Virus record (IMG/VR): IMGVR_UViG_3300021961_008157
Reading direction: 5' to 3' (one strand)
Source of the DNA: a virus
DNA length: 64,000 bases
Position numbers and translations under genes: made by a program. Position 1 is the stretch's first letter; the number at the start of each line of letters is the position of its first letter. This document shows, one piece after another, positions 46,422-63,900 of this stretch. The notes under the pieces are model-generated. The model saw only the letters and a list, made by a program, of their open reading frames with translations, did not search any database and was not told the DNA's origin.

Positions 46422-49079
46422 TTACCATTCAAATAAAGTTTGGAATGTGTTTTCAGTGTTAGTGGCACTGGTCAAATCCCACTCAAGCACACCTAGCAAA
46501 TTGTCGATCTTTTGATCAACCACAGTGGCTTCCATAGCACCGTCATCAAATGGCAGTTCCTTAAACCACTCGGGCAGTCGCTGTTCATCTGTGGGATAAC
46601 CAATACTGGTCCAGCCCAGTGGATTAGCTTTTAGCTTGCACACAATAGTTTTCATACCATCAACAATTTGCATTGAGTAGTTATCGCCATTCATACGCCG
46701 TAAATTATTCCAGTTAAGTGCTGCTCTAACGTGCCCGGGCATGTTGGCTTTGCCTAACCGTTCTTCCTCAGCGGCATACTTGGTTAAGTTATTAACACGT
46801 TTGGGACTGCCCTTTTCCCAACCTGGGCGATCCATGAACGTATACTTAAATTCGCGTATGCGTTCAACAATCTTGTCCCGCGGATGACCACTCAGAGCCA
46901 TGTTCAATATTTCTAACAAAAAATCTTGAATCACACGCGGAGTATCACTGCGTTTTAGATCCAAGCCCATGACCTTGGTCTTGCCAATAGCACCGTTAAT
47001 GTCTAGGCGTTTGCCTTCAAGATCAACAATGTTTACAGCATAACGCTTTTTAGTAATAAACAAGCCACGATCGGCTACCAGTTCGCGACCAGCCCGGATC
47101 AACGCCCCCATTTCTCGCGGGCAGTGAAATGCTTGTTCCATAAATCCCGGGAAAGAGCCATTCACTTGTTCAGCAATAGAATCATACAGCGCAATACAAG
47201 TTTCTTTGTTCCATTCCATGTTTCCTGCTTCAACTTCTTTTTTCACTGCGTGCCAAGCAGTAAAGTAACAACTGTCAGTGTCGCCATAAATGATAGCGTC
47301 GCCCACATGGTCATATACACCAGTGATACACTCATTGATATATGCATCCATGTGCTTGGCAATTGAACGACCTGTTAGCGTAGTTGATTGTCCAATCCGA
47401 TGATCAAAGAAACGGCATCCAGGATTTAAAATAGCGCCATACAAACTGTTTAGATTAATTTTCTTAACCAATTGACGCTTGTCCCAAAACGCTTCTTCTT
47501 TTTTATCCTTTGCATCGCGTTTCTTGGCTTGCATTTCCTTACGCTCCGCATACCAACGCTCCAACAATCCGGGAATGATACCTTTCTTTTCATATGTAAG
47601 AATAGTGCCATTGGCCGACAATATCCATGGACGATTCGAATCAAATATAATGGACCAAATTTCCGCAGCCGAGTACACATCCGACTCGCCAGACTGCCAG
47701 TCAACGGTGATTTCAGTGCCGCGTTGTTGTTCCATAACAGCAGTATACTCTAAACTGCCAAACAATCCCTCCCACGCCGCTGCAAAACTTTGTCCACTGT
47801 TGATTTTATCTTTGATGTATCTATCAGTCATGATAGGACGCAGTTGCCCCACAACTGTTTCGGGTCCCATGTTCATAGCACGAATCGCTGACGGATATAG
47901 ACTGTTAATGTCCACTGATCCAATCCACTCGCTCATGCCCTTCTTGGGATAAGCCACATATGCACCGGCCGCTTGTGTGTTGTCATCAGTTAGGCGCTGC
48001 TGCCGATTGGGCACAACCATGCCCCGCTCGTGTGCTTCGTTAATAATAGCCTGCTCAGTCACAGCCACAGCACCCATGGTGGTCTGTAGCAACACAGTAT
48101 TAGCATGTGCCAGCGTGTTGGCTAGATCTAGAAACTGTAGTTTTTTGTCTAACTTGTTTAGTAGTGCTGTGTCTTGGCGGTTGTATGCAATAAACGTTTT
48201 GAAGTGCTGGTTATACAGTTGATCCAGCGTACCTTCAAACTGTGTCTTACGCTCGCCCAACTCGTATTCAGCAATAGCATCTAGACTATAACTGTGCCGT
48301 TCTTCATAAGTGTATTTCCGATACAACTGCATATAGTCCATATGCACACGACCAATCAAGTCATAAGTTTCTTGCTCGGCACCAAAGCGTTCAAACTTCC
48401 GTGGCTTGGGAAACTGCCCCCAAAGGCAAAACTTTCGTGTATCGTCCTTGCTGAGTATGCGTGTGATGCGATTGATAGTGTAAGGAATATCATAGCCTTC
48501 GGAGTTCCACCCACTAAGCACATCTGCATCGTCGATCAGGTCCAGGAACATTTTGAGCATGTCCGCTTCGTTGTCAAACAAAAATGTGTTATCAAACTCG
48601 GCAACCAACTCTTGTGCTGTTTCCATGCTAATGGAACGCGGAGGCACAGCCAGCGTTACCAACTGATCCAGCCAATCCAGGTATACCGAAATCGCTGTTA
48701 TGGCGTTGAATGGATCTTCGGTGGGCGAAAAGCCGCGAACCTTGTCAAAGTCTACTTCAATGTCGAAAAATGCTGTTTGTAGTACAGGGGAGTCGGCATC
48801 TTTATAGTTTTCTTCAAAGCAGCGAAAGATAGGATTGATATCGCTTTCATACAACTGCTTGCTGCTGTGCATTCGAATTTCTTTGCGAAATTCTTTGTTG
48901 TTCCGAGTGGAGAATCTGCTGACTGGTGTGCCGTAGATGCTTTGAAACTTACCCCGCGGGTCATCGTAATAAAAAACAAAACTAGCAGGATATTCTTTAT
49001 AGACACGATGACCATTTACACGCTCTACAACGTGAATGCGATCAGAATCTCTATCAAATAGTGCATCTACATATGACAT
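46422..49079 (-). CDS. Family B DNA polymerase
   Basis: Exo DIEVD, DINSLYPS, K..LNSLYG, YGDTDS, KKRY. Confidence 0.97.
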   Translation of the reverse strand: MSYVDALFDRDSDRIHVVERVNGHRVYKEYPASFVFYYDDPRGKFQSIYGTPVSRFSTRNNKEFRKEIRMHSSKQLYESDINPIFRCFEENYKDADSPVLQTAFFDIEVDFDKVRGFSPTEDPFNAITAISVYLDWLDQLVTLAVPPRSISMETAQELVAEFDNTFLFDNEADMLKMFLDLIDDADVLSGWNSEGYDIPYTINRITRILSKDDTRKFCLWGQFPKPRKFERFGAEQETYDLIGRVHMDYMQLYRKYTYEERHSYSLDAIAEYELGERKTQFEGTLDQLYNQHFKTFIAYNRQDTALLNKLDKKLQFLDLANTLAHANTVLLQTTMGAVAVTEQAIINEAHERGMVVPNRQQRLTDDNTQAAGAYVAYPKKGMSEWIGSVDINSLYPSAIRAMNMGPETVVGQLRPIMTDRYIKDKINSGQSFAAAWEGLFGSLEYTAVMEQQRGTEITVDWQSGESDVYSAAEIWSIIFDSNRPWILSANGTILTYEKKGIIPGLLERWYAERKEMQAKKRDAKDKKEEAFWDKRQLVKKINLNSLYGAILNPGCRFFDHRIGQSTTLTGRSIAKHMDAYINECITGVYDHVGDAIIYGDTDSCYFTAWHAVKKEVEAGNMEWNKETCIALYDSIAEQVNGSFPGFMEQAFHCPREMGALIRAGRELVADRGLFITKKRYAVNIVDLEGKRLDINGAIGKTKVMGLDLKRSDTPRVIQDFLLEILNMALSGHPRDKIVERIREFKYTFMDRPGWEKGSPKRVNNLTKYAAEEERLGKANMPGHVRAALNWNNLRRMNGDNYSMQIVDGMKTIVCKLKANPLGWTSIGYPTDEQRLPEWFKELPFDDGAMEATVVDQKIDNLLGVLEWDLTSATNTENTFQTLFEW

Positions 49080-49152
49080 AACAAAATCCGTTTATGGCCG
49101 GCAGCCGTGATACATGCTCGTAGCGTGAGCGACTCGTTGTGAATGCTACTAC

Positions 49153-49410
49153 TTATAGCGTTTTGCCTACAGTGGTCAAAATAGTTTCTAGTAGCTCGTG
49201 ATCCTGCTGCTCTTTACCAAATTCAGCTTTGTGTGCCAGTTTGATGGCTTTTTTCAGAATAGCTGGTTTGATTTCCAGTTCTTCTGCCACTGCTTTAATA
49301 GTATCGCTTAGGCCACCTTGTAATGATTCAATTTCATGCATCACAGTCATGCCTTCGTTAATGATCTGTGTAAGTTTGATTTTTTGGTCGCCGTTGAATG
49401 TTTTGGTCAT
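49153..49410 (-). CDS. Small helical dsDNA-binding protein (T4 DsbA/GapR-like)
   Basis: Size and the IKAVAEELEIKPAILKKAIKL pattern; TTGACT-17-TATACT promoter at 49433-49461. Confidence 0.55.
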   Translation of the reverse strand: MTKTFNGDQKIKLTQIINEGMTVMHEIESLQGGLSDTIKAVAEELEIKPAILKKAIKLAHKAEFGKEQQDHELLETILTTVGKTL

Positions 49411-49477
49411 AAAATACTCCAATTAAAAATGTAGTATACACAATAAGACAAGCAAAGTCAACAGTTTTGGTGCAGTA

Positions 49478-50566
49478 TTATCTGAATTTGTTTAATATTT
49501 TGTTAGCGGTTTGTTCATTATTGTCCTGGCATTTTTTTCTGAAATCTCCCGACCAGACATAATCGTTGTTGTGTTCAGTACTGTTCCGGGTCATTAACTC
49601 AATGTCGTTAGTAGTGTAATTAGCAAGACTTTTTATCAAATTAACTATTCCCTGCATTCGAGTAATATTTCCCGGATCGTTGTCCCAACTTAAATCTAGT
49701 TCACCATAATCAAATTCAAATCCCAAATCACGCAGATGTTTATATGATTCAAATTGTCCAACAGGTACAAAAGGAGTTCCAGCAATTAAACATTTATATA
49801 ACTTTTCTGAAAATGATGGCCCTGGTATAATAACATCACCAAATTCATTAATCATGCGACTGTAATGAAAACTCTCGCCCACAAAGTGCAATGCTGACTC
49901 TAAATATGTTGATTGCCAGGGGTTTGAATTTACGTGCTGATTATTATCAATCGCGTTGTTAAACTCATCAATGGCAATTGTTTTTCCCAGCCATTTGGAT
50001 TGAAATGTACTCATTAATCCGTCGAGTTCGCTGTTGCCGGTTGGCACCCAATGGTGTACATTTTTAAGCTCGACCCAGTCGCTGAGTTTAACCAGCAATT
50101 CTTCTCGTTTGATATACTCCATTAACGCAGTAAACACTATTGCTTTAGATTGTGTTATTCGATTGCAGATATTACTGATTTTGTATTTGATTGTGCGTGT
50201 CTGTTGATTGGGAAATCTTTGAATAATTCTGTGTATGTGTTCGTGCCAACTATGATATTGATAAAAATAAACATTATCAAGAAATGGAAAATCATAGTCA
50301 GATCCATCACACAATACAATAATCGGCTCTGATATTCTAGCTGCCTGACTCATAACCCATTCAGTGTCGAATCTTTCTTGATGAAATAGTAGGACATAGG
50401 TTGAATGACCTAAGGGTAGATTAATGGGGTTGTTCGATGAACTAGGTATACACGGCCAAAGTGCAAAGTATGTGTCTTTGGGTAAGTCTTCTAACCAATT
50501 TAGTTCGTCGATTTCCAGTGGGAATGTTGGACGACCAAAAAATTGATCAGGCATAATGTATTTCAT
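49478..50566 (-). CDS. Glycosyltransferase-like protein (family of 23965-25865)
   Basis: FSEKLYKCLIAGTPFVPVG...LGF. Confidence 0.5.
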   Translation of the reverse strand: MKYIMPDQFFGRPTFPLEIDELNWLEDLPKDTYFALWPCIPSSSNNPINLPLGHSTYVLLFHQERFDTEWVMSQAARISEPIIVLCDGSDYDFPFLDNVYFYQYHSWHEHIHRIIQRFPNQQTRTIKYKISNICNRITQSKAIVFTALMEYIKREELLVKLSDWVELKNVHHWVPTGNSELDGLMSTFQSKWLGKTIAIDEFNNAIDNNQHVNSNPWQSTYLESALHFVGESFHYSRMINEFGDVIIPGPSFSEKLYKCLIAGTPFVPVGQFESYKHLRDLGFEFDYGELDLSWDNDPGNITRMQGIVNLIKSLANYTTNDIELMTRNSTEHNNDYVWSGDFRKKCQDNNEQTANKILNKFR

Positions 50567-50577
50567 GCCATTATATA

Positions 50578-50666
50578 GCTCACTTTGTAGGTCACGGTAG
50601 CGATTCGCTTCCTACGCCCAGCAGCCGGGCAACACCACGGTAACTAGTACCGGTCCTAAGGTGTGT
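50578..50666 (-). ncRNA. Candidate structured intergenic RNA
   Basis: Three consecutive GC-rich stems in a non-coding gap. Confidence 0.5.
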
Positions 50667-50670
50667 TCTT

Positions 50671-52248
50671 TTACTTGCCGGCTACAGCCAGCGCAGCACC
50701 TTTGTTAAAACTGGGACTCCAGGGACTATTAGCCTGCTGTAATCCCTTACTCTTGCTCCATTCATAGCCAGCACGATGTCCCGAACAGTCTTTAGTGCAC
50801 TCACTGCCCAAAAACTTTAGTTCATTCAGTTCATCTTTAAATCCGCTCAAGTTGCGCTCAACCTGACTGACCCAAGCACTAACATCACTGGAACCAATTT
50901 CTTCCACATCGCCTACAAATTCAGCAACACTATCAATGGCGTCACCTACAGCAAAAGGTCCATATTTTTGTAATAAGTCTGCTCGCTGCCTTAAGATGCG
51001 GTTTGTAATAGCATTGGCCACAGGATTGTCTTCTTGGCCTTCGTCCACACCTTGCTGTTCATGCATATCGCGAAGCTCTTTATACTTGTCTAGTAAGTCT
51101 TTGTGTTTGCCAATCTCAGTTGATTTCAATCCATAGCGAGCAGTTTTAGCGTTGTCTAAATGATATTTGGCTCTCTTATGATCACCACGTTCATGGGCAT
51201 CGATAGCCTTCTTCATAGTTGTGGCAAACGACGATTCCGCTACACCTTGTAGTTCTTTTTGTGTGGCGCCTGCTTTACGAGCAGCTTCAGCATCTTTAGA
51301 ATCTTTTGTCTTGCGATATTTTGCTAATAATTCTTTGCGGGTGCCACCTTGACTTGGGGGATTGTAATCTGTGGCACTTGCGGTTTCATCCACACCGTGT
51401 TCAGGCTTAACATCCACAACCTTAGCCATACTATGATGCTTTAGGAAACGCTCACGAGCAGAACGAGGACCAGTCATACCCCGAACACGGAACTTTTTAA
51501 CCTTACCGTCTACTTCAGCAGTGACAATGTAATCGCGAACCATTTGAGCAGCGGCTTGTAGACCACTTGGATCTAATGCTGCTTCATCCATATCGTCACG
51601 GAACTCACCGCTGTCGTGCATACGTGCTTCTTCTTCGTCACTATCAGCATAGTCGTTAAAACTTACATCGCTAGAGTGAAAACTATGCTTACCGTGATTG
51701 TATAAGTTTACAATAACAAAACGCTTGTCTTGACCAAAATCATCAATAACGCCAGTTGCACCATTGAACTCAACGTTGCCAGTGATAACAACATCATCAC
51801 CAATGTTTAAGCCTTCTGCGGATTCCGCCACACCTTCTTTTACGCTGTCAATGATTGCTTTAATTTGCTTCAAGTGATTTAATTTACTTGCTAATTGTTT
51901 AGCATTAGCATATTGGCTGCCAGATGTTGTGCGCTCATAGTCGCCATATCTTTTTAATTCATTTGCAACTTGTGTAATTTCAGCATCAATGTTAGGATGC
52001 TTTGCTGCCCAACCTTGTGCAATGCGCTGGTCTCTTTCGCTACTTTGCGCATCACCTTCACTCATACCCGAGCGTAGTTTCTTGCTAAACTCCTGAGCGC
52101 TTTTCTTTTCAGCTTTTTGGAAACGGCGTTCAATGTCTTTTAACCCGCGTCTGTGTTCGCGATCAATTTTCTTATCTTGTGCCGCAAGTTTATCTATAAC
52201 ATCCTGAAAAGGATTGGCATTTTCATTGAAAAGGTCGTTTAAGTTCAT
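50671..52248 (-). CDS. Modular putative head-cargo polyprotein with GV[A/D]E linkers
   Basis: N-terminus MNLNDLFNE; EGVAE, HGVDE, QGVAE and QGVDE separate unrelated segments. Confidence 0.65.
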   Translation of the reverse strand: MNLNDLFNENANPFQDVIDKLAAQDKKIDREHRRGLKDIERRFQKAEKKSAQEFSKKLRSGMSEGDAQSSERDQRIAQGWAAKHPNIDAEITQVANELKRYGDYERTTSGSQYANAKQLASKLNHLKQIKAIIDSVKEGVAESAEGLNIGDDVVITGNVEFNGATGVIDDFGQDKRFVIVNLYNHGKHSFHSSDVSFNDYADSDEEEARMHDSGEFRDDMDEAALDPSGLQAAAQMVRDYIVTAEVDGKVKKFRVRGMTGPRSARERFLKHHSMAKVVDVKPEHGVDETASATDYNPPSQGGTRKELLAKYRKTKDSKDAEAARKAGATQKELQGVAESSFATTMKKAIDAHERGDHKRAKYHLDNAKTARYGLKSTEIGKHKDLLDKYKELRDMHEQQGVDEGQEDNPVANAITNRILRQRADLLQKYGPFAVGDAIDSVAEFVGDVEEIGSSDVSAWVSQVERNLSGFKDELNELKFLGSECTKDCSGHRAGYEWSKSKGLQQANSPWSPSFNKGAALAVAGK

Positions 52249-52949
52249 TATGCTTCCTCTATGTAGTCAGCACTTTCGTCTTGTTTTTTGCTTCGTGCAA
52301 GATACATTTCCAATGCCATTTGTGCTTGGTCTAAATTTTTAAAGCGTGACTTTGTTGCACGACCATTGTGGCGCACTTCAAAGCCACATAGTTCATCGCC
52401 GTGTATTTCACAGATACGACCATCTTCTAGCGTGATTGTTTTAACGGGCGACGACTCAGTGTATATAGGCTCTTCTACTGGAGCAGTAGGCATTTGGATC
52501 ACTGGCTCCTCGTCAGTGGGATTTTCAGCCACAGCAGTAATTTGTTTGGCAATAATGCTACGGTCTTTATTATTTTTTTCTTTGATGTCGCTGTCGCTTT
52601 TAGTTTTTTCTTTTAAGTCTGTATCTTTCTTTTCAGTAGCAATACTGTCAAGATATTCAGCAAAAGATTTTTTAACTTTTTCTAGTTTGTCTTCACTGGT
52701 GACTGCTTCTTCGATTTTTTCTTCGTCTTCTTCCTCAACGCTTTCATTGGCGCCAACCATGTAGCCTGCGCTGGGTGCTTTTTTATTTGGATCGCCGCCT
52801 AGCACTGGACCTTGCTTGGGCATGCTAAACAATGCTGGCATCTGTGGCACAGACTTTTGTTGACTGTTTAGGCCAGACTTAACAGAAGCAGGTGTAATGC
52901 TGCCTTCAATTACAGCCAGGCGTTGCATTATAGTGTAAATTTCATCCAT
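52248..52949 (-). CDS. Acidic hypothetical phage protein
   Basis: Intact ORF in the late cluster. Confidence 0.6.
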   Translation of the reverse strand: MDEIYTIMQRLAVIEGSITPASVKSGLNSQQKSVPQMPALFSMPKQGPVLGGDPNKKAPSAGYMVGANESVEEEDEEKIEEAVTSEDKLEKVKKSFAEYLDSIATEKKDTDLKEKTKSDSDIKEKNNKDRSIIAKQITAVAENPTDEEPVIQMPTAPVEEPIYTESSPVKTITLEDGRICEIHGDELCGFEVRHNGRATKSRFKNLDQAQMALEMYLARSKKQDESADYIEEA

Positions 52950-52951
52950 GA

Positions 52952-53392
52952 TTATTCCCTAACGTCCTTTAGAAAGCTACGCAATTGCCAAGCATACTTG
53001 TTTTGCTGACTCAGTCGTTCAGCAATAAAGTTGGCAATGTCTTGTTTGTTTTCAGCTTCAGCATCAGCAAAACAACTGTTCAATAGGTCTACCATTGTTT
53101 GGCTGTCTGCCAGTAGTTCTTGGATCATTAGTTTGGCCCGGGGTATTTTTGTTTGGCCGGGTATTTGTGTCAATTCCTGAAAGCGTTCTAAGCTGCCAGG
53201 AGCGTATTCGTCTAAACTTCGTATATACTCAGCCAGTGGATCAATGGCTTCGTACGCATCTTGGTATATCTCTCCAAAAAAATTGTGTAACTGTGCAAAG
53301 TCGCTGCCTTCAACGTTCCAGTGAAAGTAGTGAACTTTTAGATAGTAGGAAAACTGGCTGGCCAGTAGTGTTTTTAGTTGATCAGTTAGCAC
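52952..53392 (-). CDS. dps: Dps / ferritin-like DNA protection protein
   Basis: HYFHWNVEG.DF..LH..F, D.LAEYIR.L, W.LRS. Confidence 0.9.
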   Translation of the reverse strand: MLTDQLKTLLASQFSYYLKVHYFHWNVEGSDFAQLHNFFGEIYQDAYEAIDPLAEYIRSLDEYAPGSLERFQELTQIPGQTKIPRAKLMIQELLADSQTMVDLLNSCFADAEAENKQDIANFIAERLSQQNKYAWQLRSFLKDVRE

Positions 53393-53576
53393 GACGTTTC
53401 TTTCCTTTTTTCATATAACTTGGAGTATTTGGAGTTGCATCCGTAGTGTATTTACCAGAAAAGAAGCTGCCGCCGTTTCTACTAACCATGCCCAGCGGAG
53501 CAGCTACTGGTGCTATACCACCTGCGCTAGTGGCGCCAGCTGACGCATTTTCGCGAATAAATTCGTGTGCTTTCAT
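53382..53576 (-). CDS. Small putative virion peptide
   Basis: N-terminus MKAHEFIRE, Gly/Ala-rich core, basic tail. Confidence 0.55.
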   Translation of the reverse strand: MKAHEFIRENASAGATSAGGIAPVAAPLGMVSRNGGSFFSGKYTTDATPNTPSYMKKGKKRRAN

Positions 53577-53854
53577 TGTGTAATTTTTAAAATATTGTTG
53601 GTAATGCGTCCGGGACCGTGGTCAACACGGAGGTTGTTTATGTGCAATGTTGCTACAGTGGGATCAAGCAATTGATAACTGATAACGTATTCCCCAGGTT
53701 CTGCTTCAATTTGGAGCATTTCTTCAAGATACTCGTTGGTCCACTTCCATGTGCGTTCAGCAAACAGTTCGTCATCAACATACACACGGTATACAGGCGG
53801 TGTGCCCGACCAAGTGCAATCAAGATCACACAGTACACGAACAAATTGTCTCAT
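53573..53854 (-). CDS. Hypothetical protein
   Basis: Preceded by TAAATA; coupled to the next ORF. Confidence 0.55.
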   Translation of the reverse strand: MRQFVRVLCDLDCTWSGTPPVYRVYVDDELFAERTWKWTNEYLEEMLQIEAEPGEYVISYQLLDPTVATLHINNLRVDHGPGRITNNILKITQ

Positions 53855-53872
53855 CCTGTATTTAGCTACAGT

Positions 53873-54061
53873 TTATTGAACTTGTTTGATAGAACCTATG
53901 TGCCAGTCTTGTATATTATATTGGGTTTTTAAGATGTTCCGGGCTACAGTAATGTTTGGAGCCCAAGTTGTTACGTTAACCAAAGAAACATATCGTGGGT
54001 TTTCAATACGGATTTTAGCAATCCATTGCTTGGCTGACCCGACAATTTCTTTGGCTTTCAT
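53873..54061 (-). CDS. Small hypothetical protein
   Basis: N-terminus MKAKEIV; TAAATA upstream. Confidence 0.5.
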   Translation of the reverse strand: MKAKEIVGSAKQWIAKIRIENPRYVSLVNVTTWAPNITVARNILKTQYNIQDWHIGSIKQVQ

Positions 54062-54094
54062 TGTGTATTATTTACCAGATAAATGGTCATAATT

Positions 54095-55081
54095 CTATGC
54101 ATTGTGCCCATATACTTGATAGTATCTTAGAATCATTGAATCTGCAAAAAATTTGTGTGATAGTAGTCCGGGATGGCTGCCGTCAGAACCCAGGTCAATA
54201 TAATGATCATCGTGGTTCTGCCCAAAAATTCCATGTAATGGAATAAAATTCGGCATTCTTTCCATGTCTGACTCAATGCCTTTGATTAGTGTTGCTAAAA
54301 TAAATTTAACTCCGATTTTATTACAAAAATTTATAACTTGGTAAATCGACGTTATAGATTTGTACTGTGTATGGTCAGACAAAAAGTATTCTTTAGTTAT
54401 TAACTTTGCAGCCAGACTGCTTGCGTGACTTTTGTTTATATTTGTAAATTTCACCGACATCGACATATCGTCCCAAAATGAAAATCTTTTTGGATTTGTA
54501 ATCCCCCAAAATAAAATATCATTTTTTTCTAAGTCGGACCGCAAGATCTGATCGGCTGCCCACTCAATTGAACTCCCTGAGCGTGTCAGGAAAGAAACTG
54601 GAAGATTTAATTTTTCAGAAATTATATTTCCATAACGTTCGTGTTGTTGAACACCCATTCCGTCACTTATACTACATCCAGCAATCCAAATTTGCGGTTT
54701 TTCTGATCTTTTTGTGTCAGCAAGTTCCAGTGAATTCTTGGCTATCCCCTTTGCTTCATATCCATGAACAATTTTTGTTGGGTCCTTTGAGAATACTGTT
54801 AGATACGATTCGATCCATTCTTTTTGCTTGCTAGATTGAAAGAGAGATTGATCAGACCATTTTTCAGGAGGAGCATATATTATTCTGTTTGCCTGTCTTA
54901 AAACAGATGCAAATTGTACCAAATTGTCAAGGTCGCCAATACTGATATAGTAAGTGCCCGGTGATAGTTCTTTGTAATTTTTGTTGGTAATTAATACTGC
55001 ATCAAGATCATGTTTTTGTGCTGTTTCTGCCAAATACGGAGTTATATCGCCAACAAAAATTGTAATTTCTTCGGTGGCCAT
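54095..55081 (-). CDS. SGNH-like hypothetical protein
   Basis: AGCSISDG, GSS and DGSHPG motifs. Confidence 0.55.
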   Translation of the reverse strand: MATEEITIFVGDITPYLAETAQKHDLDAVLITNKNYKELSPGTYYISIGDLDNLVQFASVLRQANRIIYAPPEKWSDQSLFQSSKQKEWIESYLTVFSKDPTKIVHGYEAKGIAKNSLELADTKRSEKPQIWIAGCSISDGMGVQQHERYGNIISEKLNLPVSFLTRSGSSIEWAADQILRSDLEKNDILFWGITNPKRFSFWDDMSMSVKFTNINKSHASSLAAKLITKEYFLSDHTQYKSITSIYQVINFCNKIGVKFILATLIKGIESDMERMPNFIPLHGIFGQNHDDHYIDLGSDGSHPGLLSHKFFADSMILRYYQVYGHNA

Positions 55082-55087
55082 TGAATA

Positions 55088-55717
55088 CTACTTTGTAGAT
55101 TTAGCGGCGTTCTTTTCCTTTACAGCACCCTCGGGCATGTAGGGAAAACTTACAGGATGTCGAAAACATGCTTTAGGATCGCCTTGCCCCGCTTCGATTA
55201 AAAATGCTGTTTCGGCGGGCACTTGTCCCATAGGGCAATAGCATGTGGCAATGCCATTTGGTCCCTTTTCGCAATTCCAGCTAAAACAGTTGCTGGCATT
55301 GTAGCCTTGCTTTAGATCGGCGCTGCATTTTTGAACCACAACTTTCATGTCTTTGGGCTTGTGGCTGAAGTTATTGGCTTCTTGTGGATACTCTAGCCGC
55401 GGCCAAAATGTGCTCCATACATGTTTGCTGTCAGTGGGCTCGCAACTGCCCTTCATGTTGCCCATGCTGGTGTCAGCAATATTGGGACCGTTTAATATGG
55501 GGCAACGGCACACCACTTCAGGATATGAATTGCCAGCTGAGTTAGTAATCATTCGCTGCGTACCATCGGCATTCATTACAGGCTTACAAGTACTGGCTGC
55601 ACAAAGCGCAAATTCGCCTTGGCAAATGGTCAATCCCGGAGGTGCTTTGGGTTTTGATTGTGCAAATGCTGCACTAGCCAGTACTAAACTGGTTAAAAAT
55701 ATTACTAGTTGTTTCAT
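55088..55717 (-). CDS. Secreted cysteine-rich protein
   Basis: Signal peptide, many Cys residues. Confidence 0.65.
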   Translation of the reverse strand: MKQLVIFLTSLVLASAAFAQSKPKAPPGLTICQGEFALCAASTCKPVMNADGTQRMITNSAGNSYPEVVCRCPILNGPNIADTSMGNMKGSCEPTDSKHVWSTFWPRLEYPQEANNFSHKPKDMKVVVQKCSADLKQGYNASNCFSWNCEKGPNGIATCYCPMGQVPAETAFLIEAGQGDPKACFRHPVSFPYMPEGAVKEKNAAKSTK

Positions 55718-55718
55718 G

Positions 55719-56606
55719 TTAATCCGCCTTAATTTGTACGTTACTTATACTCATTGATGTGGTGCTACCACACATTGCACCCCATGAGCATGAACCATTC
55801 CACCAGCCCTGGGGTTGCCCGGGACTCCAACCGCCCTGCCAAATACTAGCATGAATCCAATAACCATTGTTCATGCTGGTTTTAAGATCGTTCATGTTAA
55901 TAGAACCGCTGCCACTATATCCAGACCCAACAGTTGAATCATACACTACCACGCTGTTGCTCCCTTGAGTGTATGTGACTTTATATGTGGGAGTGTCACC
56001 ATAGGTAAAGTCAGCAGTCATTTGTACTGGTTTGGTAATGTCAATAATGCCGGCTAACTTGTGCGATCCCCCTGATGGATTGTCGCTCATTTTACTAGAA
56101 TCATAGCAGCTGGTGTTCAATGCTTTGTCAGTATAGCTAAGTTCAAATCGTTGTGGTGCATTTATGCCACCGTTGCCTGTGTGAATTGTAGTTTGAATTA
56201 CTGCGTTGGCGTTGGATTCAAGCATGTCAATTTCACGGCAATTTTGATCAGTCAAGTTGCCCCCAGCATCACAATAGTCTTTGCCCGAGTTTGAACGGGT
56301 GGGATTGGTTGGATTGCTTACCATATAAAAAGTATGATTTACAAAATTACTAGTGGCTCGGCTGAGATCAACAGTGGCTGTAATTTGTGTGATGTTTTTG
56401 TATGATTGCTTGCTTACCACTCGTCCCGCGGCACACGAAGACGTGCCAAAAGACACAGCGCCCGGTGTATTCACATCAGGATTGGTGTCGCAACTTTTAT
56501 AGTCTACTACAAATGTTGGTGTGTATGTGGTTTGTGCTGTGCTTGTTACTGTTGGTTTACATCCGACTAATAATGATAAAAATACCAGTGTTACTAATTG
56601 TTTCAT
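55719..56606 (-). CDS. Lipoprotein with GH7/GH16-like (clan GH-B) glycoside hydrolase motifs
   Basis: Lipobox LVGC; YCDA...CREIDMLESN. Confidence 0.6.
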   Translation of the reverse strand: MKQLVTLVFLSLLVGCKPTVTSTAQTTYTPTFVVDYKSCDTNPDVNTPGAVSFGTSSCAAGRVVSKQSYKNITQITATVDLSRATSNFVNHTFYMVSNPTNPTRSNSGKDYCDAGGNLTDQNCREIDMLESNANAVIQTTIHTGNGGINAPQRFELSYTDKALNTSCYDSSKMSDNPSGGSHKLAGIIDITKPVQMTADFTYGDTPTYKVTYTQGSNSVVVYDSTVGSGYSGSGSINMNDLKTSMNNGYWIHASIWQGGWSPGQPQGWWNGSCSWGAMCGSTTSMSISNVQIKAD

Positions 56607-56645
56607 GTTACTTCCTTCAATTTTATTTAACAATATAGACGGTCC

Positions 56646-56930
56646 TTACCACCATTTCATTGCCACACCAAATCCAAATACATTTACACAAGCAAAGTAT
56701 GCTGTCAGGAGCATGGGCCACGGAATGCCCCGGCGGTAATACGCATACACTCCGGCGATAGAACCAATGAAAAATCCGGGATACACAATACGCATGTCAG
56801 GATTGTCAGCAGTTAATGCCAGCGTTAAACTGGCTCCTACAGTTGTTATAAAACTAACCAGCTCGTAGTAAAAGGCAGTGCGATCGATTTTATAGCTTTG
56901 GATCCAAAAGGCTATTATTTTTTGTTTCAT
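56646..56930 (-). CDS. Small three-TM membrane protein
   Basis: Hydrophobic segments. Confidence 0.65.
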   Translation of the reverse strand: MKQKIIAFWIQSYKIDRTAFYYELVSFITTVGASLTLALTADNPDMRIVYPGFFIGSIAGVYAYYRRGIPWPMLLTAYFACVNVFGFGVAMKWW

Positions 56931-56949
56931 CGTTTGTTGCGTGTTTTGC

Positions 56950-57048
56950 CTATAAAATTCTGATCATTACCATTACTGTTATTACTGCCACTGCCGCTAT
57001 TAGTATTAGATCCGACACCGTTTCCTTGATCTTGTTCTTGTCCATCAT
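56950..57048 (-). CDS. Putative single-TM mini protein MMDKNKIKETVSDLILIAAVAVITVMVMIRIL
   Basis: Below the ORF-track cutoff; ATGA-coupled to the upstream gene; flanked by a 24-bp imperfect repeat. Confidence 0.45.
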   Translation of the reverse strand: MMDKNKIKETVSDLILIAAVAVITVMVMIRIL

Positions 57049-57347
57049 CGCTTGCTGCGTGTTTCGCCCATGGACATTCCCCATGTGCCATCTTCATCTA
57101 CGCCGCCTGCTCGTGCGTCCTGCTGCGACATTTTAGCTGTTTCTGCATTCCGTGCAGCGTCGGCAGCTTGTGATTGCCAGCTACTTTCATCATCAACGTT
57201 CCCAGTTTCTTCTTCCTCAATGGGCACACAGTTGTTGACTCGCACGCCACCTTTCATTTTGGTTTTGGGATTGCCAATCTTTTTACCTGACCAGCATTTG
57301 GGATCTAGCCGTGTTTTTTCTTCAATTATGATGTCTTGGATTTTCAT
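57045..57347 (-). CDS. Small putative virion protein
   Basis: N-terminus MKIQDIIIEE, CW.G.K...VNNCVP module, GVDE. Confidence 0.6.
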   Translation of the reverse strand: MKIQDIIIEEKTRLDPKCWSGKKIGNPKTKMKGGVRVNNCVPIEEEETGNVDDESSWQSQAADAARNAETAKMSQQDARAGGVDEDGTWGMSMGETRSKR

Positions 57348-57359
57348 ATGTACCTTTGT

Positions 57360-59354
57360 TTATGTTCGGCTGGTATAGTCCTTGAAGTTTTCCGCACGAT
57401 CTTGTAACCCCCGCATACCCGGATTGATCATTCGGGTTACTGCGGCTACGTCATTGTAGTTATCTACATTGGGCTGCACACGATGTTTCCAGTACCACAC
57501 AGCCACTTGTGCTGCTACTGCTGGATCTTCAACTAATTCTGGTCGTTGTTCAAGTGGTAATCCCAGTGCTTGTCCAGCTACTTTGTAGTTGTGTCGCCCG
57601 GTCAATTGTATAAACCCACGACCTTTGTAGCGTTCACCATCACCAGCAAACTTATTGCCTAGTGCCCGTGCTTTCTTTGGTGCGTGTTTAGGATCGTATT
57701 TCCGAAAGTCTAACTTACCGCCAATTTCTTTTAGTCGTTTAAAGTCCAGTGTTTCGTGGGCGCATTGTGCCATAAACGCTGCTAGTTCAGTGCCGGCTAG
57801 ACCAGCACGTTGAGCAACAGATTTTAACACATTTTCAAGTGGACTGTTTGTTATATTTTTTATTTGCGCCGGTGCTTTGGGTTGTGCCTGCTTGGCTGTT
57901 TGTGCTTTTTGCACGCCTTGGGCAATGGAACTTTTTGCAACTGGTGCTTGGATTTGTTTTGCTGGTTGCTGTGGTGCAGGAGCAGTTGCTACTGGAGCGG
58001 TGCTGCTTGAACTCCATTTATTAAACGCATCTTTTGCAGCCATACCACCAGCGCCACCTGCACCAATAGCGCCAGCAATAGCCAAGTTTCCTAGAGTGTC
58101 CTTCCAACCTTCTCCGAGTGGCAATGATTGTTTTAAGAACTGCTCACCTTCACTGGTAACATACCAATATCCGTCATCGTTGATAGCATAACCATTGCTA
58201 TCTAAACTGTCTAACACGTTGTCATATTCTGCGGTGCGTGACTCATCTTCGATAAAATCCATACCTAATTTTGCTGCTGTATAGATAGCGTGTAATACTA
58301 ATATCTTGCCGTAACCCTTACCTTTGTATTCGGGATTGACTTCAGCAATGCTGCGTCCACTGTTTGCGTCATATTGATAACCGCCTGCAGGTTTGCCGTT
58401 AACTGTCATTTCAGTAGCAAACTTATTACGACCTTTACGAACTGAAATAGCAACTTGCTCTACTGACTCCGCCACACCTTGCTTCTTTGCCCAGTCGTCT
58501 GGAGAAACTTTATTTTTTTCAATAAATCGATCGTGTAGTTTGCTCGGTGTTATTTTATGATTTTTGGCCACAGTTTGCATCATGTGATCTATGGCGTCAT
58601 AACTGTGGGGATCTTTAAGATCTTTTTCTAAATCTTCAACGCTGTCTTCGTTGGCTTTCTTTTTCCCACCTTTCATATTGGCGCACCAGTGATACATTTT
58701 GCCTTTTTCGCCTGAGTACTTTTTGGCCTTAGCCCGCAAGTCAGTTACTGAACCAGCGCAACTTGCGCCCGCTGCTTTTACACGACCTGGGCGACTTTTA
58801 CCTTTTACTTTACCGTCAGCAAAGTTTTCCGCCACACCTTGTTCCCAGATATTTTTACCCGGTTTGTGTTTGTCCCAGAATGCAGCACCGGCATCTGTTT
58901 GCTGTCCACTGCGGCGTATTCTATATCCCTTACTCTTAACATAATCATACATTGTGGCGGCAATGCCTTGACCACGGAAGCGTTCATCAACTTCTAAGTC
59001 TTGTGGATTGAGAACCATGCCTTGACTGTCATAATCTATTGTAAATAATACATGTCCTAATTCTCTACTACCTGCTGATGCCTTGACAAATACTTCTCCA
59101 TCATCATCATCTTTTTGAAGTAAAATGTTTATACCGCCGTAGTTTTCTCTGTTCTCTGCCACACCAGCGGTGCTGCCCAGTCCTGGTAGTTTTACACCAA
59201 TAACATCTTGCACCAAGTCCCAACCCTGTTTGTATTTTTTCGCAGCGATTAAACGTTTGAGTTCGGCTTTTTGCTCAGCCGTGGCCAATGTGAAAAACTT
59301 AAAAGTTTCCATTGCGCCTATGTTACGCTTGTAACTCAACTCATTTAATCGCAT
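57360..59354 (-). CDS. Modular polyprotein: two GNAT-like modules, small modules, C-terminal GH19 lysozyme
   Basis: FRGQGIA and YKGKGYG acetyl-CoA motifs; AQCAHET, YKGRGFIQLTGRHNY, VTRMIN; GVAE linkers. Confidence 0.8.
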   Translation of the reverse strand: MRLNELSYKRNIGAMETFKFFTLATAEQKAELKRLIAAKKYKQGWDLVQDVIGVKLPGLGSTAGVAENRENYGGINILLQKDDDDGEVFVKASAGSRELGHVLFTIDYDSQGMVLNPQDLEVDERFRGQGIAATMYDYVKSKGYRIRRSGQQTDAGAAFWDKHKPGKNIWEQGVAENFADGKVKGKSRPGRVKAAGASCAGSVTDLRAKAKKYSGEKGKMYHWCANMKGGKKKANEDSVEDLEKDLKDPHSYDAIDHMMQTVAKNHKITPSKLHDRFIEKNKVSPDDWAKKQGVAESVEQVAISVRKGRNKFATEMTVNGKPAGGYQYDANSGRSIAEVNPEYKGKGYGKILVLHAIYTAAKLGMDFIEDESRTAEYDNVLDSLDSNGYAINDDGYWYVTSEGEQFLKQSLPLGEGWKDTLGNLAIAGAIGAGGAGGMAAKDAFNKWSSSSTAPVATAPAPQQPAKQIQAPVAKSSIAQGVQKAQTAKQAQPKAPAQIKNITNSPLENVLKSVAQRAGLAGTELAAFMAQCAHETLDFKRLKEIGGKLDFRKYDPKHAPKKARALGNKFAGDGERYKGRGFIQLTGRHNYKVAGQALGLPLEQRPELVEDPAVAAQVAVWYWKHRVQPNVDNYNDVAAVTRMINPGMRGLQDRAENFKDYTSRT

Positions 59355-60959: not shown

Positions 60960-63900
60960 TTATCTCATCTCGGGTACTACTTCAATCTCGGCACTTTCTG
61001 GTGGAGGATTGTATCGTCCATTTCGAATGGCTGCCAACAACCATTCTTGGGCTTTGCGGTTAGCATCCCCTTGATTGTTGCCAATGCCACTGAGTCTGTG
61101 TATTTCTTGGCCGTTGACTTTAATTATCCATTGTCCAGTAAACTCACCGCCTGGTTGCTGTGTGCTTGCTGCGGGTTGTGGCTCTTGTTGCTGTGCTTGA
61201 GCAGCACGTTGGCGCTGTAGGTCTACAGTAGAACCAGGTAATGGACCACGGCGTAAACCAATTGAACCACGGGTCATGCCACTATCTCTAACCATTTCGT
61301 CTCTATACCTATTACCAATTTCTATAGCCATTTCGTCGTCGGCAGCATAGTATGTGCGATAAACTTGGCCAGTTTCGCGACTAAACATTTCATACTTTAC
61401 GCTTTGATTAGAACCAGTGGGTGTTATTGACATTGGACGATCACGCCTAAATTCTGAATCGCTGCCACCGGCTGGTTGCCCCAATGTCTGATTATCATCA
61501 CGTTGAGCTAACCAAACTTGATCTGGATGTTCTTGTCTCCATTGTCTTAACACAATATTGGCATCATCGATGTTAGCCGCCATGAATCGGTAATATACAC
61601 TGGTTCTATCACTTTCAGGTGTAATAACATAGTTACCGTCAGGGTTACTTGGACGACCATTTACTGTTGGTCCCGACCGTTGCCCAACTGCTTGTGGTTC
61701 ACCTACTGTTGCTCGAACTGGTTCTTTATTGTACGGTGCAACGGGTTTGGCTTCTAAGTTTGCAGCACTTGCCCAATCTGGATAATTCTCTGGTTGTGTT
61801 GCTATTCTAATCGCTTCTTCTTTGGATGACGCAACAACTTTAATGCTGGCCATATAACCTGGGCGGCTAACTTCCCACCAAAACTTTTCATCACCAGTAT
61901 CGCCCTTTTTAACCTTACGCTCTAGTTGTGCTTGTTTGATAAAACTCTTTAAATCTTCTTTAGGCATTTCACCTGCTACATACTTGGCAAAGTATTCCAA
62001 TGTGTCTTTGCCCGAGCCATTTGGTGACAGCACTTTGTATAACTTCTTCAAGTATTCTTGACGATACTTTTTAGGATCCATAGCAGCATCAGTAGCCACA
62101 ACAAAGCGCAGTAGTGTATTTTCTAACTTGTCTACATTTGCCGCATACTCACCCAACCAATCGCCCCCGGGACTGCGGAATTCAATATAGTTGCCCTTTG
62201 TATTGATGCTTGTGTATTTCTGTGTTTCGCCAGAGTGAATGATTTTAGTTGCCATCGCTTCTAAATTATCTTTCATTTTCTTTAGCAAAGCAGCCGCATC
62301 TTCGGGACGCTGATTTATACGATCGCGCACAATCCTCATAGCACTTTTAGTATATGTATTGGCTGAACGACCAAATTGATCCAGTACATATTCATCGCCT
62401 AACAGCAATGCCAGTTTAACATAGTCAAGTTTATCAGTTGACAAGTCGGGTATGCTAACATTCATATGTAAGCCGGTGGAATCGTTTGTGTACGCACCAA
62501 CTCTGCCTGCCCACTTTACAACTTTTTCCAAGTCATCGAGCATTTCATCTAGTGGTAGCGGAGGACTAATAAACTCAAGACCAGATTCGCCACTATTGTC
62601 GGGATCTAAACTGCTGTCAGGTTCAATAACATAGTCTGTGGCGTTCCGCTTGGCACCGTGATAACTTGATGAGTACTGAACTTTGCGACCAATAGCATCC
62701 TCAAAATCCGACGCAATCGATCCTATATCTGTTTCGGGTTCAGGGTTGTAATAATGTGGCCAAGCGATATCGTGGCTTCCGGAAATATCACTCATGTTGG
62801 GATAAACAGCGTCCAGGAATTCTCGCTCTTCAGTATTGTTAAACGCTTCTTCCCTGTAATCATCATATGCTTCTTGATGAAAACTGTTGGTATTTTCTAT
62901 TGAATACTCAACAAAGTTCTTCCAGTCTTCTTTAGTCAGTTCATGATCTTCGGGTAATTCTAATACTTCTCTAACATCATCGTCGCTGGCATTTTCTTTA
63001 ACCCAATCCCAGACACGTTCTTCCTCATCCTCTTCCCAGTTTTCATCTATACGCTCACCTAACCATTCAAAAAATTCATCTTGTAAATTTTCTATTAGGC
63101 GATCAACTTCACGGCGGGAGTTGTAGTCATTATCATGAAAGAATTCTCTAATGTCAGCCCAACTACGGCTGCGTTGATCTGAATCATAATCAGGTTCTAT
63201 GTCGCCGTCACCGTAACTATCTGTATCAACACCCGGAACGATCATTTCAAATTCCATGCCAGCACGAGCGTCAATGTTTCGTGCTAAATCGCGCAAAGAA
63301 CTAATGCTCATGTTGATTTCAAACAGTGCTTCTTCGGTTAATGATTCATTTACATTATAAGTAGGATCAGTTTTGACTTTCTTCATGCCCGCCGGTTGTG
63401 CAGGATCACGAGGATCAATGTCTGTTATATCCAGACCTGTAGCTTCTAAATCTTTAATAAACTTGTGTTCTGTATCTTCGTCGCCGAAACTGATGATAGA
63501 ACTGGGAGGTCCCTTGCCAAAATCGTGTTTACCAAGGCCCTTTAAGTTGCTGATGTGTTGTCCCAATTTGTACCAGTCGTATACATCGCTTACATCTACA
63601 CGCAAAGTACCCTTTGGCATAGTGGGTTTGGATTCTGGCCCAGGTGGATGATCAGGACTGTAATCTTCAGCAGTCCGGCCAGGTAGTCGCCCTGTTTCTT
63701 TAAACTCCCGCAAAGCATTGGCCAGCCCTTTCATCAACAGTTCAGGATGTCCTTGGCTGTCAGTGTTTAAATTTAATTTGTTGGCTTCTTTACCAGTGGC
63801 ACCGGGTTTAACATCTTTGGTCAGGGCCATAGACCAGCGCGGATCACGGGCCTGCTTTTTTGTTGGAATGTACCCCGAGCTTTCGTTGGCGTTGGCAGCA

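Follow-up and report, generated by a model that had tools for sequence, protein, structure and literature searches.

Why should a short protein linker be spelled with nearly the same nucleotides at one junction after another, in a viral genome whose codon usage favours other choices? This question is raised by a stretch of viral DNA of 64,000 nucleotides (IMG/VR record IMGVR_UViG_3300021961_008157, hereafter the window), in which two open reading frames (ORFs), P0001 and P0002, encode polyproteins with modules separated by the peptide GV[A/D]E. The window contains seven of these peptides, all on the minus strand and in these two ORFs, with none elsewhere among its 72 ORFs (∼19,500 codons). We find that the linker is kept as DNA and that it coincides with the boundaries at which cassettes are gained, lost and exchanged. 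Probably, it is an in-frame junction element that serves as a prohead-protease site in the protein and as a short-homology crossover point in the DNA, with young copies being canonical.

The initial annotation gave positions and codons for the seven copies, and its coordinates and counts are exact: Gly is encoded by GGT in 7/7 copies, Val by GTG in 6/7 (one GTA) and Ala by GCG in 4/5 (one GCA). In the window, the background frequencies of these codons are 0.377 (GGT), 0.217 (GTG) and 0.096 (GCG), and those of GAA and CAA are 0.778 and 0.735, bearing out the impression that surrounding genes favour A/T-ending codons. The corresponding binomial tails are 1.1e-3, 5.9e-4 and 3.9e-4 (product 2.5e-10); this test was post hoc in the window and was replicated independently in relatives. 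Genome-wide counting drew on three sources, namely the window, loci retrieved without regard to the linker (linker-blind) and five large related contigs, and all statistics of motif identity come from the linker-blind sets, while loci ascertained on the exact 15-mer described below were used for flanks, contexts and breakpoints only. A protein-based IMG/VR scan with P0002 supplied the first linker-blind set (80 of at least 594 loci). Genes neighbouring the matches contained 21 GVAE sites, 17 of them with an identical 12-nt core, in a setting where GCG makes up only 7% of Ala codons. A second set of 80 more IMG/VR loci was collected via a linker-free module alignment, after which sites were de-duplicated. 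The resulting 48 GVAE sites (linker-blind loci and the window's five) carry GGT in 45 cases, GTG in 39, GCG in 38 and GAA in 40, against backgrounds of 0.41, 0.19, 0.08 and 0.80, respectively. For the 43 sites outside the window, P-values are 1e-12 (GGT), 8e-19 (GTG) and 2e-29 (GCG, found in 34/43 copies), and GAA is at background. Codon choice in the motif thus departs from the background both in the window and in independently fetched relatives.

Two internal controls show what this departure means. The basic NFADGK module of P0002 was compared in 54 copies: its invariant residues have scrambled synonymous sites, with GCG at 0–4% in invariant Ala columns and GTG at ∼9–17% in invariant Val columns. 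Therefore, strong amino-acid conservation does not fix codons in these phages. Other GVxE linkers also use background codons (GTG in 2/15 GVDE and 1/11 GVEE copies); in GVTE linkers, Thr is encoded in 5/10 cases by ACG, one step from GCG. Since neither the NFADGK module nor the other linkers share it, the bias is a property of one DNA sequence and not of cleavage linkers generally. The uniformity of the linker, as the annotation had proposed, exceeds what codon usage and protein conservation explain.

The exact 15-mer encoding QGVAE was found in at least 120 IMG/VR contigs. Among the matches listed, 157/167 lie in frame as QGVAE within ORFs of at least 100 aa, and their surroundings are extremely diverse; 2–4 copies are present in 33 loci. 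A synonymous control 15-mer built from favoured codons, compared with the canonical one by copy multiplicity and context only, behaved differently: 0/120 listed loci were multi-copy, and matches were mostly within one conserved protein family and not between modules. Aligning 210 contexts around the 12-nt core revealed that the codon preceding Q has A at its second position in 78% and G at its third in 60% (Lys is normally AAA), and that the codon following E is GGC, with C at 57%; beyond these codons conservation is zero on both sides. The element is therefore ∼21 nt long (K-Q-G-V-A-E-G), asymmetric and without dyad symmetry, and the 15-mer first noticed is its core. The residue before G can be Q, E or K (CAA, GAA or AAA), and most other linker variants are single-base neighbours of the consensus. 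Each large related contig has 1–11 matches to a degenerate 12-nt pattern, clustered in few genes; ∼45% of these matches are a single canonical version out of 128 possible ones. An assembly or adapter artefact is ruled out by open frames in contigs from many samples; the motif should also be shorter than the final assembly k-mers, which further counters an assembly artefact.

Across 185,579 bacterial and archaeal species genomes, an 18-mer version of the element gave 56 matches; almost all of these occur where the GC content is 53% or higher and look like chance. One clear phage-type exception is an 8.9-kb contig (L333, CAILDT010000116.1; 39% GC) with three copies and modules like those of P0002. 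This contig is binned with an uncultured Bacteroidetes metagenome-assembled genome (MAG), a weak hint at the host. A Bdellovibrio MAG contig (L291, GC 0.44) is a possible second phage-type case. We also observed that 4/166 canonical linkers (in L126, L140, L174 and L119) stand 0–7 residues before a stop codon with no module following; such linkers may have been left behind when a cassette was lost, or may serve as free docking ends.

In the window, the two polyproteins, their linkers and the two modules referred to below are arranged as follows.
50671–52248, minus strand: P0001, a mosaic polyprotein of 525 aa; its N-terminus is capsid-targeting-like, and its four GV[AD]E linkers are at aa 139–142, 285–288, 335–338 and 400–403.
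51823–51837, minus strand: P0001 linker 1, EGVAE; one mismatch to the canonical 15-mer, 12-nt core exact.
51385–51399, minus strand: P0001 linker 2, HGVDE; three mismatches to the 15-mer, GGT GTG and GAA kept.
51235–51249, minus strand: P0001 linker 3, QGVAE; one synonymous mismatch to the 15-mer (GTA).
51040–51054, minus strand: P0001 linker 4, QGVDE; two mismatches to the 15-mer.
50854–51027, minus strand: A1 module (58 aa) after P0001 linker 4; widespread, with 485 IMG/VR relatives.
57360–59354, minus strand: P0002, a 664-aa polyprotein with linkers at aa 64–67, 173–176 and 293–296.
59154–59168, minus strand: P0002 linker 1, AGVAE; the most diverged copy (GCA, GAG), with five mismatches to the 15-mer and only GGTGTGGC kept.
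58827–58841, minus strand: P0002 linker 2, QGVAE; the exact canonical 15-mer.
58647–58826, minus strand: NFADGK module, a basic module of 57–60 aa directly after P0002 linker 2 that resembles a T4 internal protein.
58467–58481, minus strand: P0002 linker 3, QGVAE; one synonymous mismatch (GAG), with a preceding AAG that fits the extended consensus.

Relative to the 21-nt consensus, the seven copies have 3–9 mismatches. P0001 gave no family match in Pfam or PHROG, and its modules each match different ORFs across different IMG/VR loci, with the limits of high-scoring segment pairs (HSPs) clustering at its linkers, near aa 133–135, 283, 338 and 387–405. Linkers 2 and 3 enclose a 50-aa module with 82% identity to a module of locus L167 that has canonical linkers on both sides. 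P0002 consists of an N-terminal leader, a first GNAT-like domain, the NFADGK module with a spacer, a second GNAT-like domain, a Gly/Ala/Pro/Gln-rich stretch and a GH19 lysozyme. HSP starts and ends cluster at all three of its linkers (aa 58–73, 167–179 and 288–293), and they cluster at non-linker boundaries as well (aa 231–257, 407–417 and 475–500).

The same tendency was found when breakpoints were collected from many loci. In comparisons of linker ORFs from different loci, 17–20% of internal BLASTP HSP ends fall within 8 residues of GV[AD]E, versus 6% at random, with a sharp peak at Glu. At the DNA level (blastn HSPs of at least 85% identity and at least 80 nt), 22.7% of internal ends lie within 6 nt of the core, compared to 0.6% of random positions in the same loci; the proportion is 18% for HSPs of 85–90% identity and 32–33% at 90% and above. 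HSP endpoints are not independent events in these counts. Individual exchanges can be seen between near-identical contigs. Loci L082 and L139 share 96.9% and 99.3% DNA identity over 2.6 and 1.8 kb, and their polyprotein ORFs have the first 98 residues in common, up to the linker; from there they continue with two and three unrelated modules, respectively, each bounded by linkers. Locus L180 contains a 167-nt internal duplicate (99.4% identity), with the motif at both ends of the second copy. The prediction that module breakpoints map to the motif was thus confirmed by the concentration of HSP ends at the core and by these cassette swaps.

Turnover of modules is also evident at the position of P0001 itself. 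The gene order of window positions 49000–52950 (a 233-aa gene, the polyprotein and onward to the DNA polymerase) is kept in three related contigs (L284, L285 and L287), the polymerases of which are 80–83% identical to that of the window. Their syntenic polyproteins are 300, 675 and 1167 aa long, versus 525 aa in the window, and have at most one module in common with it.

Canonical linkers appear to be young. We started from canonical junctions and compared them with homologous junctions in the linker-blind loci in which both flanks could be aligned. At flank synonymous identity of 0.3–0.6, 0/32 subject linkers were QGVAE, and seven redundant ones were xGVAE. The linkers preceding the NFADGK module form a gradient: some differ from the 18-nt consensus at 1–3 positions, with single amino-acid changes, and at the other extreme are [VLIM]-x-E sequences unrelated to it; those adjoining the A1 module family likewise run from canonical QGVAE through many degenerate [VLIM]-x-E forms. 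Since homologous junctions with diverged flanks are usually non-canonical, canonical copies must be recent, with fixed junctions decaying. The spread of linkers at old junctions would therefore imply a loose protease requirement. Judged from these alignments, the decay argues against site-by-site nucleotide selection and for continual re-creation by copying. Of the two possibilities in the initial annotation, that the motif is copied or selected as DNA, copying is supported by the uniform DNA and the breakpoints, and the decay speaks against selection at each site.

At the protein level, all seven sites of the window read V-[A/D]-E, with Glu at P1 and an aliphatic residue at P3 as in sites of gp21-type (Peptidase_S77) proteases, and degenerate linkers at homologous junctions retain [VLIM]-x-E. 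Peptidase_S77, the family of T4 gp21, scored above cut-off in 3/5 large related contigs, and the three proteases are 59–69% identical to one another. The NFADGK module, with 85–92% amino-acid identity in many of at least 594 IMG/VR stretches, is nearly always found at the extreme C-terminus of unrelated proteins or in an ORF of 68–87 aa (stop to stop); many of these small ORFs have a 9-aa leader ending in [IV]-x-E directly before the module. T4 internal proteins are small and basic, with a leader of ∼10 aa (a 10-residue capsid targeting sequence with processing determinants at positions 8 and 10), and the cut comes after a Glu that has an aliphatic residue two positions upstream (review PMC9026906). 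The small NFADGK ORFs have the same layout of leader, [IV]-x-E and module, and the N-terminal leader of P0001 is similar; the NFADGK module may be an internal-protein or packaging tag. Pfam domains in 51 related polyproteins include GNAT (in 5), DUF6321 (in 3), deaminase (in 2), and GH19 and LysM (one each). Taken by their sequences, these polyproteins are likely to be head-internal cargo released by the prohead protease.

We therefore favour the following scheme as the probable one. The element would separate independently folding modules in capsid-cargo polyproteins of one uncultivated clade of T4-superfamily jumbo phages. In the protein, it would provide an aliphatic-x-Glu site for a gp21-type prohead protease, so that each module would be freed inside the head, like T4 internal proteins. 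In the DNA, it is the sole sequence common to otherwise unrelated cassettes, and the general recombination system of the phage could use it as a short GC-rich homology patch. An exchange between two copies would thereby stay in frame and retain the cleavage site. Recently exchanged copies would be canonical, and junctions that do not exchange would drift by point mutation to degenerate, still cleavable [VLIM]-x-E. Synonymous positions would then look conserved because of birth-and-decay turnover and not because of site-by-site purifying selection. The suggestion of a crossover point that inserts in-frame modules thus stands with respect to where exchanges occur, as breakpoints and cassette swaps demonstrate; that strands cross over inside the motif, by short-homology recombination, we infer.

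Several observations weigh against this scheme. About 67–77% of homology breakpoints are away from the canonical motif, some at other short motifs and others at none that is obvious. Extant genomes give only a coincidence of boundaries with the motif, and selection for in-frame, domain-respecting junctions predicts the same pattern. A length of 15–21 nt is short for efficient homologous recombination. Among the window ORFs scanned with Pfam or PHROGs, which are a minority of all its ORFs, no protease was matched, and the linker is a putative gp21-type cleavage site by virtue of its sequence pattern. Other junctions are illustrated by a 140-aa module common to L075:2614-3033 and L192:8296-8715 (96.9% DNA identity), which has unrelated sequence on either side. 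Both its ends lie at short E-N-F or E-N-F-A-D-G coding motifs; therefore, other junction motifs act as cassette boundaries too.

The main rival, which we consider unlikely, is that the linker hitch-hikes with young cassettes that turn over fast in an arms race. Illegitimate joins would then arise anywhere, with only those at linkers surviving selection, and linkers would be identical in DNA simply through recent common descent, without that identity causing exchange. The youth of canonical copies and their decay at fixed junctions would fit this, as would the variation of cassette content between genomes only 1–3% diverged and the use of other junction motifs for some swaps. However, in 210 contexts the element has sharp edges with unrelated flanks on both sides and is thus assignable to neither neighbouring cassette, and illegitimate joining would fail to recreate these ∼21 nt each time a new junction formed.

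Two further readings, a signal at the nucleotide level and a dedicated recombinase, have less in their favour than either hitch-hiking or the exchange of cassettes through short homology. As a signal, the element could act in RNA or DNA as a translational pause, a Shine-Dalgarno-like site, a binding site of a phage protein or a Chi-like sequence. A role of this kind would fit with its high GC content relative to a genome of 42% GC, its rare codons and its AGGTG sequence; yet we regard such a role as improbable, given that the canonical sequence is lost at homologous junctions and that the motif is nearly always in one frame on the coding strand, with no start codon following. A Shine-Dalgarno-like or pause signal as the main cause is ruled out by the background codons in other linkers of the same proteins. 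A Chi-like signal is ruled out by the number of copies (only 1–7 per contig of 240–520 kb, clustered in few genes) and by the single clear phage-type MAG contig among the 185,579 genomes.

A site-specific system of the integron, shufflon or invertase kind, encoded by the phage and excising or inserting in-frame cassettes as circles, is at best equally improbable. Its appeal is that the repeats are directly oriented, so that circles would form, that breakpoints are sharply localised and that the few linkers 0–7 residues before a stop resemble empty docking sites; the R64 shufflon, moreover, uses asymmetric 19-bp sites. Were such machinery present, this would be a true 'integron inside ORFs', with jumbo phages re-assorting injected cargo within a few generations. 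But the element lacks dyad symmetry, has no conserved arms past ∼21 nt, and its copies decay freely. No recombinase or integrase family was found among ten ORFs flanking P0001 and P0002 or in the 51 polyproteins, and those ten ORFs include no IntI-type tyrosine recombinase. The integron-like logic of the initial annotation is therefore not borne out: cassettes are a shared feature, but the ∼21-nt consensus is asymmetric, without an attC-like palindrome, its flanks are unconserved and no recombinase was seen in the ten adjacent ORFs that were scanned. Chance or ordinary codon usage can be dismissed, since a raw DNA scan only modestly above shuffles (15-mer with at most 3 mismatches; 6/7 copies recovered versus 1.5 expected in the window) is outweighed by the codon counts of the window and its relatives, the NFADGK control and the multiplicity of the 15-mer.

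The exchange of cassettes at a short in-frame element has precedents in T4-type phages. Recombination between repeats termed promoter-early stem-loops (PeSLs) explains insertions, deletions and replacements of cassettes and yields mini-circles (Arbiol et al. 2010, PMC2839356; PMC4122927). The element resembles PeSLs in being a short conserved repeat in plastic regions of T4-type genomes, in that direct repeats can yield mini-circles and in delimiting the indels and replacements seen between close relatives. It differs in that PeSLs are intergenic, consist of a sigma-70 promoter and a terminator hairpin and flank whole genes, whereas the element is ∼21 nt long, lies inside ORFs in one frame, encodes a linker and putative cleavage site and has no stem-loop symmetry. 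In the tail-fibre adhesin gp38, exchanges occur within or near in-frame glycine-rich motifs that separate variable segments (Trojet et al. 2011, PMC3157838; Tetart et al. 1996, 1998, cited in that paper). Those motifs belong to a single gene family, in which they form the core structure of one domain; the element, in contrast, is a flexible, probably cleaved linker that joins unrelated domains in many genes.

The T4 internal cargo set is itself poorly conserved, which has been attributed to an arms race (PMC9026906). T4 encodes its internal proteins in separate small genes with one cut each, while the polyproteins described here have many modules and repeated internal sites that share their DNA. 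Polyvalent proteins of phages and conjugative elements combine unrelated enzymatic domains, and their packaging, delivery into the host and possible processing have been proposed (Iyer et al. 2017, PMC5512222); autoproteolysis by zincin-like domains is suggested there, a shared linker is not described and the word 'linker' does not occur in the text. P0002, with two GNAT-like domains and GH19, similarly has several unrelated effector-type domains in one polypeptide, probably in a virion context, and related polyproteins contain GNAT, deaminase, LysM and DUF domains, with most modules lacking a Pfam family. Neither P0001 nor P0002 gave a match to signature domains of polyvalent proteins (zincin-like MPTase, ART-PolyVal and others). 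Structural neighbours of the NFADGK module in the Atlas include an ART-PolyVal cluster, which we note as a lead only.

In Rhs/CDI polymorphic toxins, a conserved coding motif (VENN in CdiA, PxxxxDPxGL in Rhs) marks the point at which variable C-terminal cassettes are exchanged, and the Rhs demarcation motif is also a cleavage site. The proteins considered here differ in probably being head cargo and not secreted toxins, and in having many serial junctions per gene instead of one. A literature search found no published description of the linker, and a text search with the peptide gave only alpha-synuclein papers. What is new is thus the location at domain boundaries in many cargo genes, the dual role, with the (inferred) cleavage site as one half, and the scale; the principle is known.

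If the scheme is correct, the element is a standard connector: the head protease would free any cargo module, and any module could be swapped in frame with any other. This would explain the fast diversification of head-internal, probably injected proteins, such as polyproteins of 300–1167 aa encoded beside a polymerase that is 80–83% identical. Repeat-mediated shuffling in T4-type phages, known at gene boundaries (PeSLs) and in one adhesin (gp38), would thereby be extended to the boundaries of domains in many genes. With the 15–21-mer as a simple probe, unknown cargo modules could be found and delimited in metagenomes by the hundred, and the packaging of foreign proteins could follow a natural design of this kind.

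The window has a GC content of ∼0.42 and nearly all of its genes are on the minus strand. Its DNA polymerase gene (46422–49079) encodes a T4-family enzyme that is 50% identical to that of Sinorhizobium phage Phosso and 47% to that of Agrobacterium phage Atu_ph07; the DNA polymerases of five IMG/VR contigs of 238–524 kb are 62–83% identical to it. Because of the T4-family polymerase and the size of the contigs with related polymerases, the window is best regarded as part of the genome of an uncultivated T4-superfamily jumbo phage. Neither megablast with the whole region nor tblastn with P0001, the NFADGK module and the P0001 C-terminus gave a match in 50,697 deposited phage genomes; the clade has no cultured representative among them.

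Other features of the polyprotein block in the window are a ferritin/Dps-like gene (52952–53392, minus strand; E = 8e-24) and, at 60960–63830 on the minus strand, an ORF of 956 aa that includes an amidoligase domain. Within a 100-aa ORF (57045–57347), 92 nt (57223–57314) form an isolated island of DNA similarity that is 88% identical to L148:11191-11282. Directly 3′ of the P0001 stop codon, an 86-nt non-coding stretch (50578–50663) is 86% identical to L095:2997-3082, which likewise lies directly 3′ of the stop of the L095 polyprotein ORF. An Rfam search with it gave no match, and from this pair it appears to be a conserved 3′ element of the P0001 and L095 polyprotein genes. Finally, the 524,565-bp contig behind locus L160 (G001) has two oppositely oriented DNA polymerase matches close to its two ends, at 18.7 kb and 508 kb, and at 176.5 kb and 524 kb it has pairs of linkers with an equal spacing of 381 nt; this contig may include a large inverted duplication or be a joined assembly.

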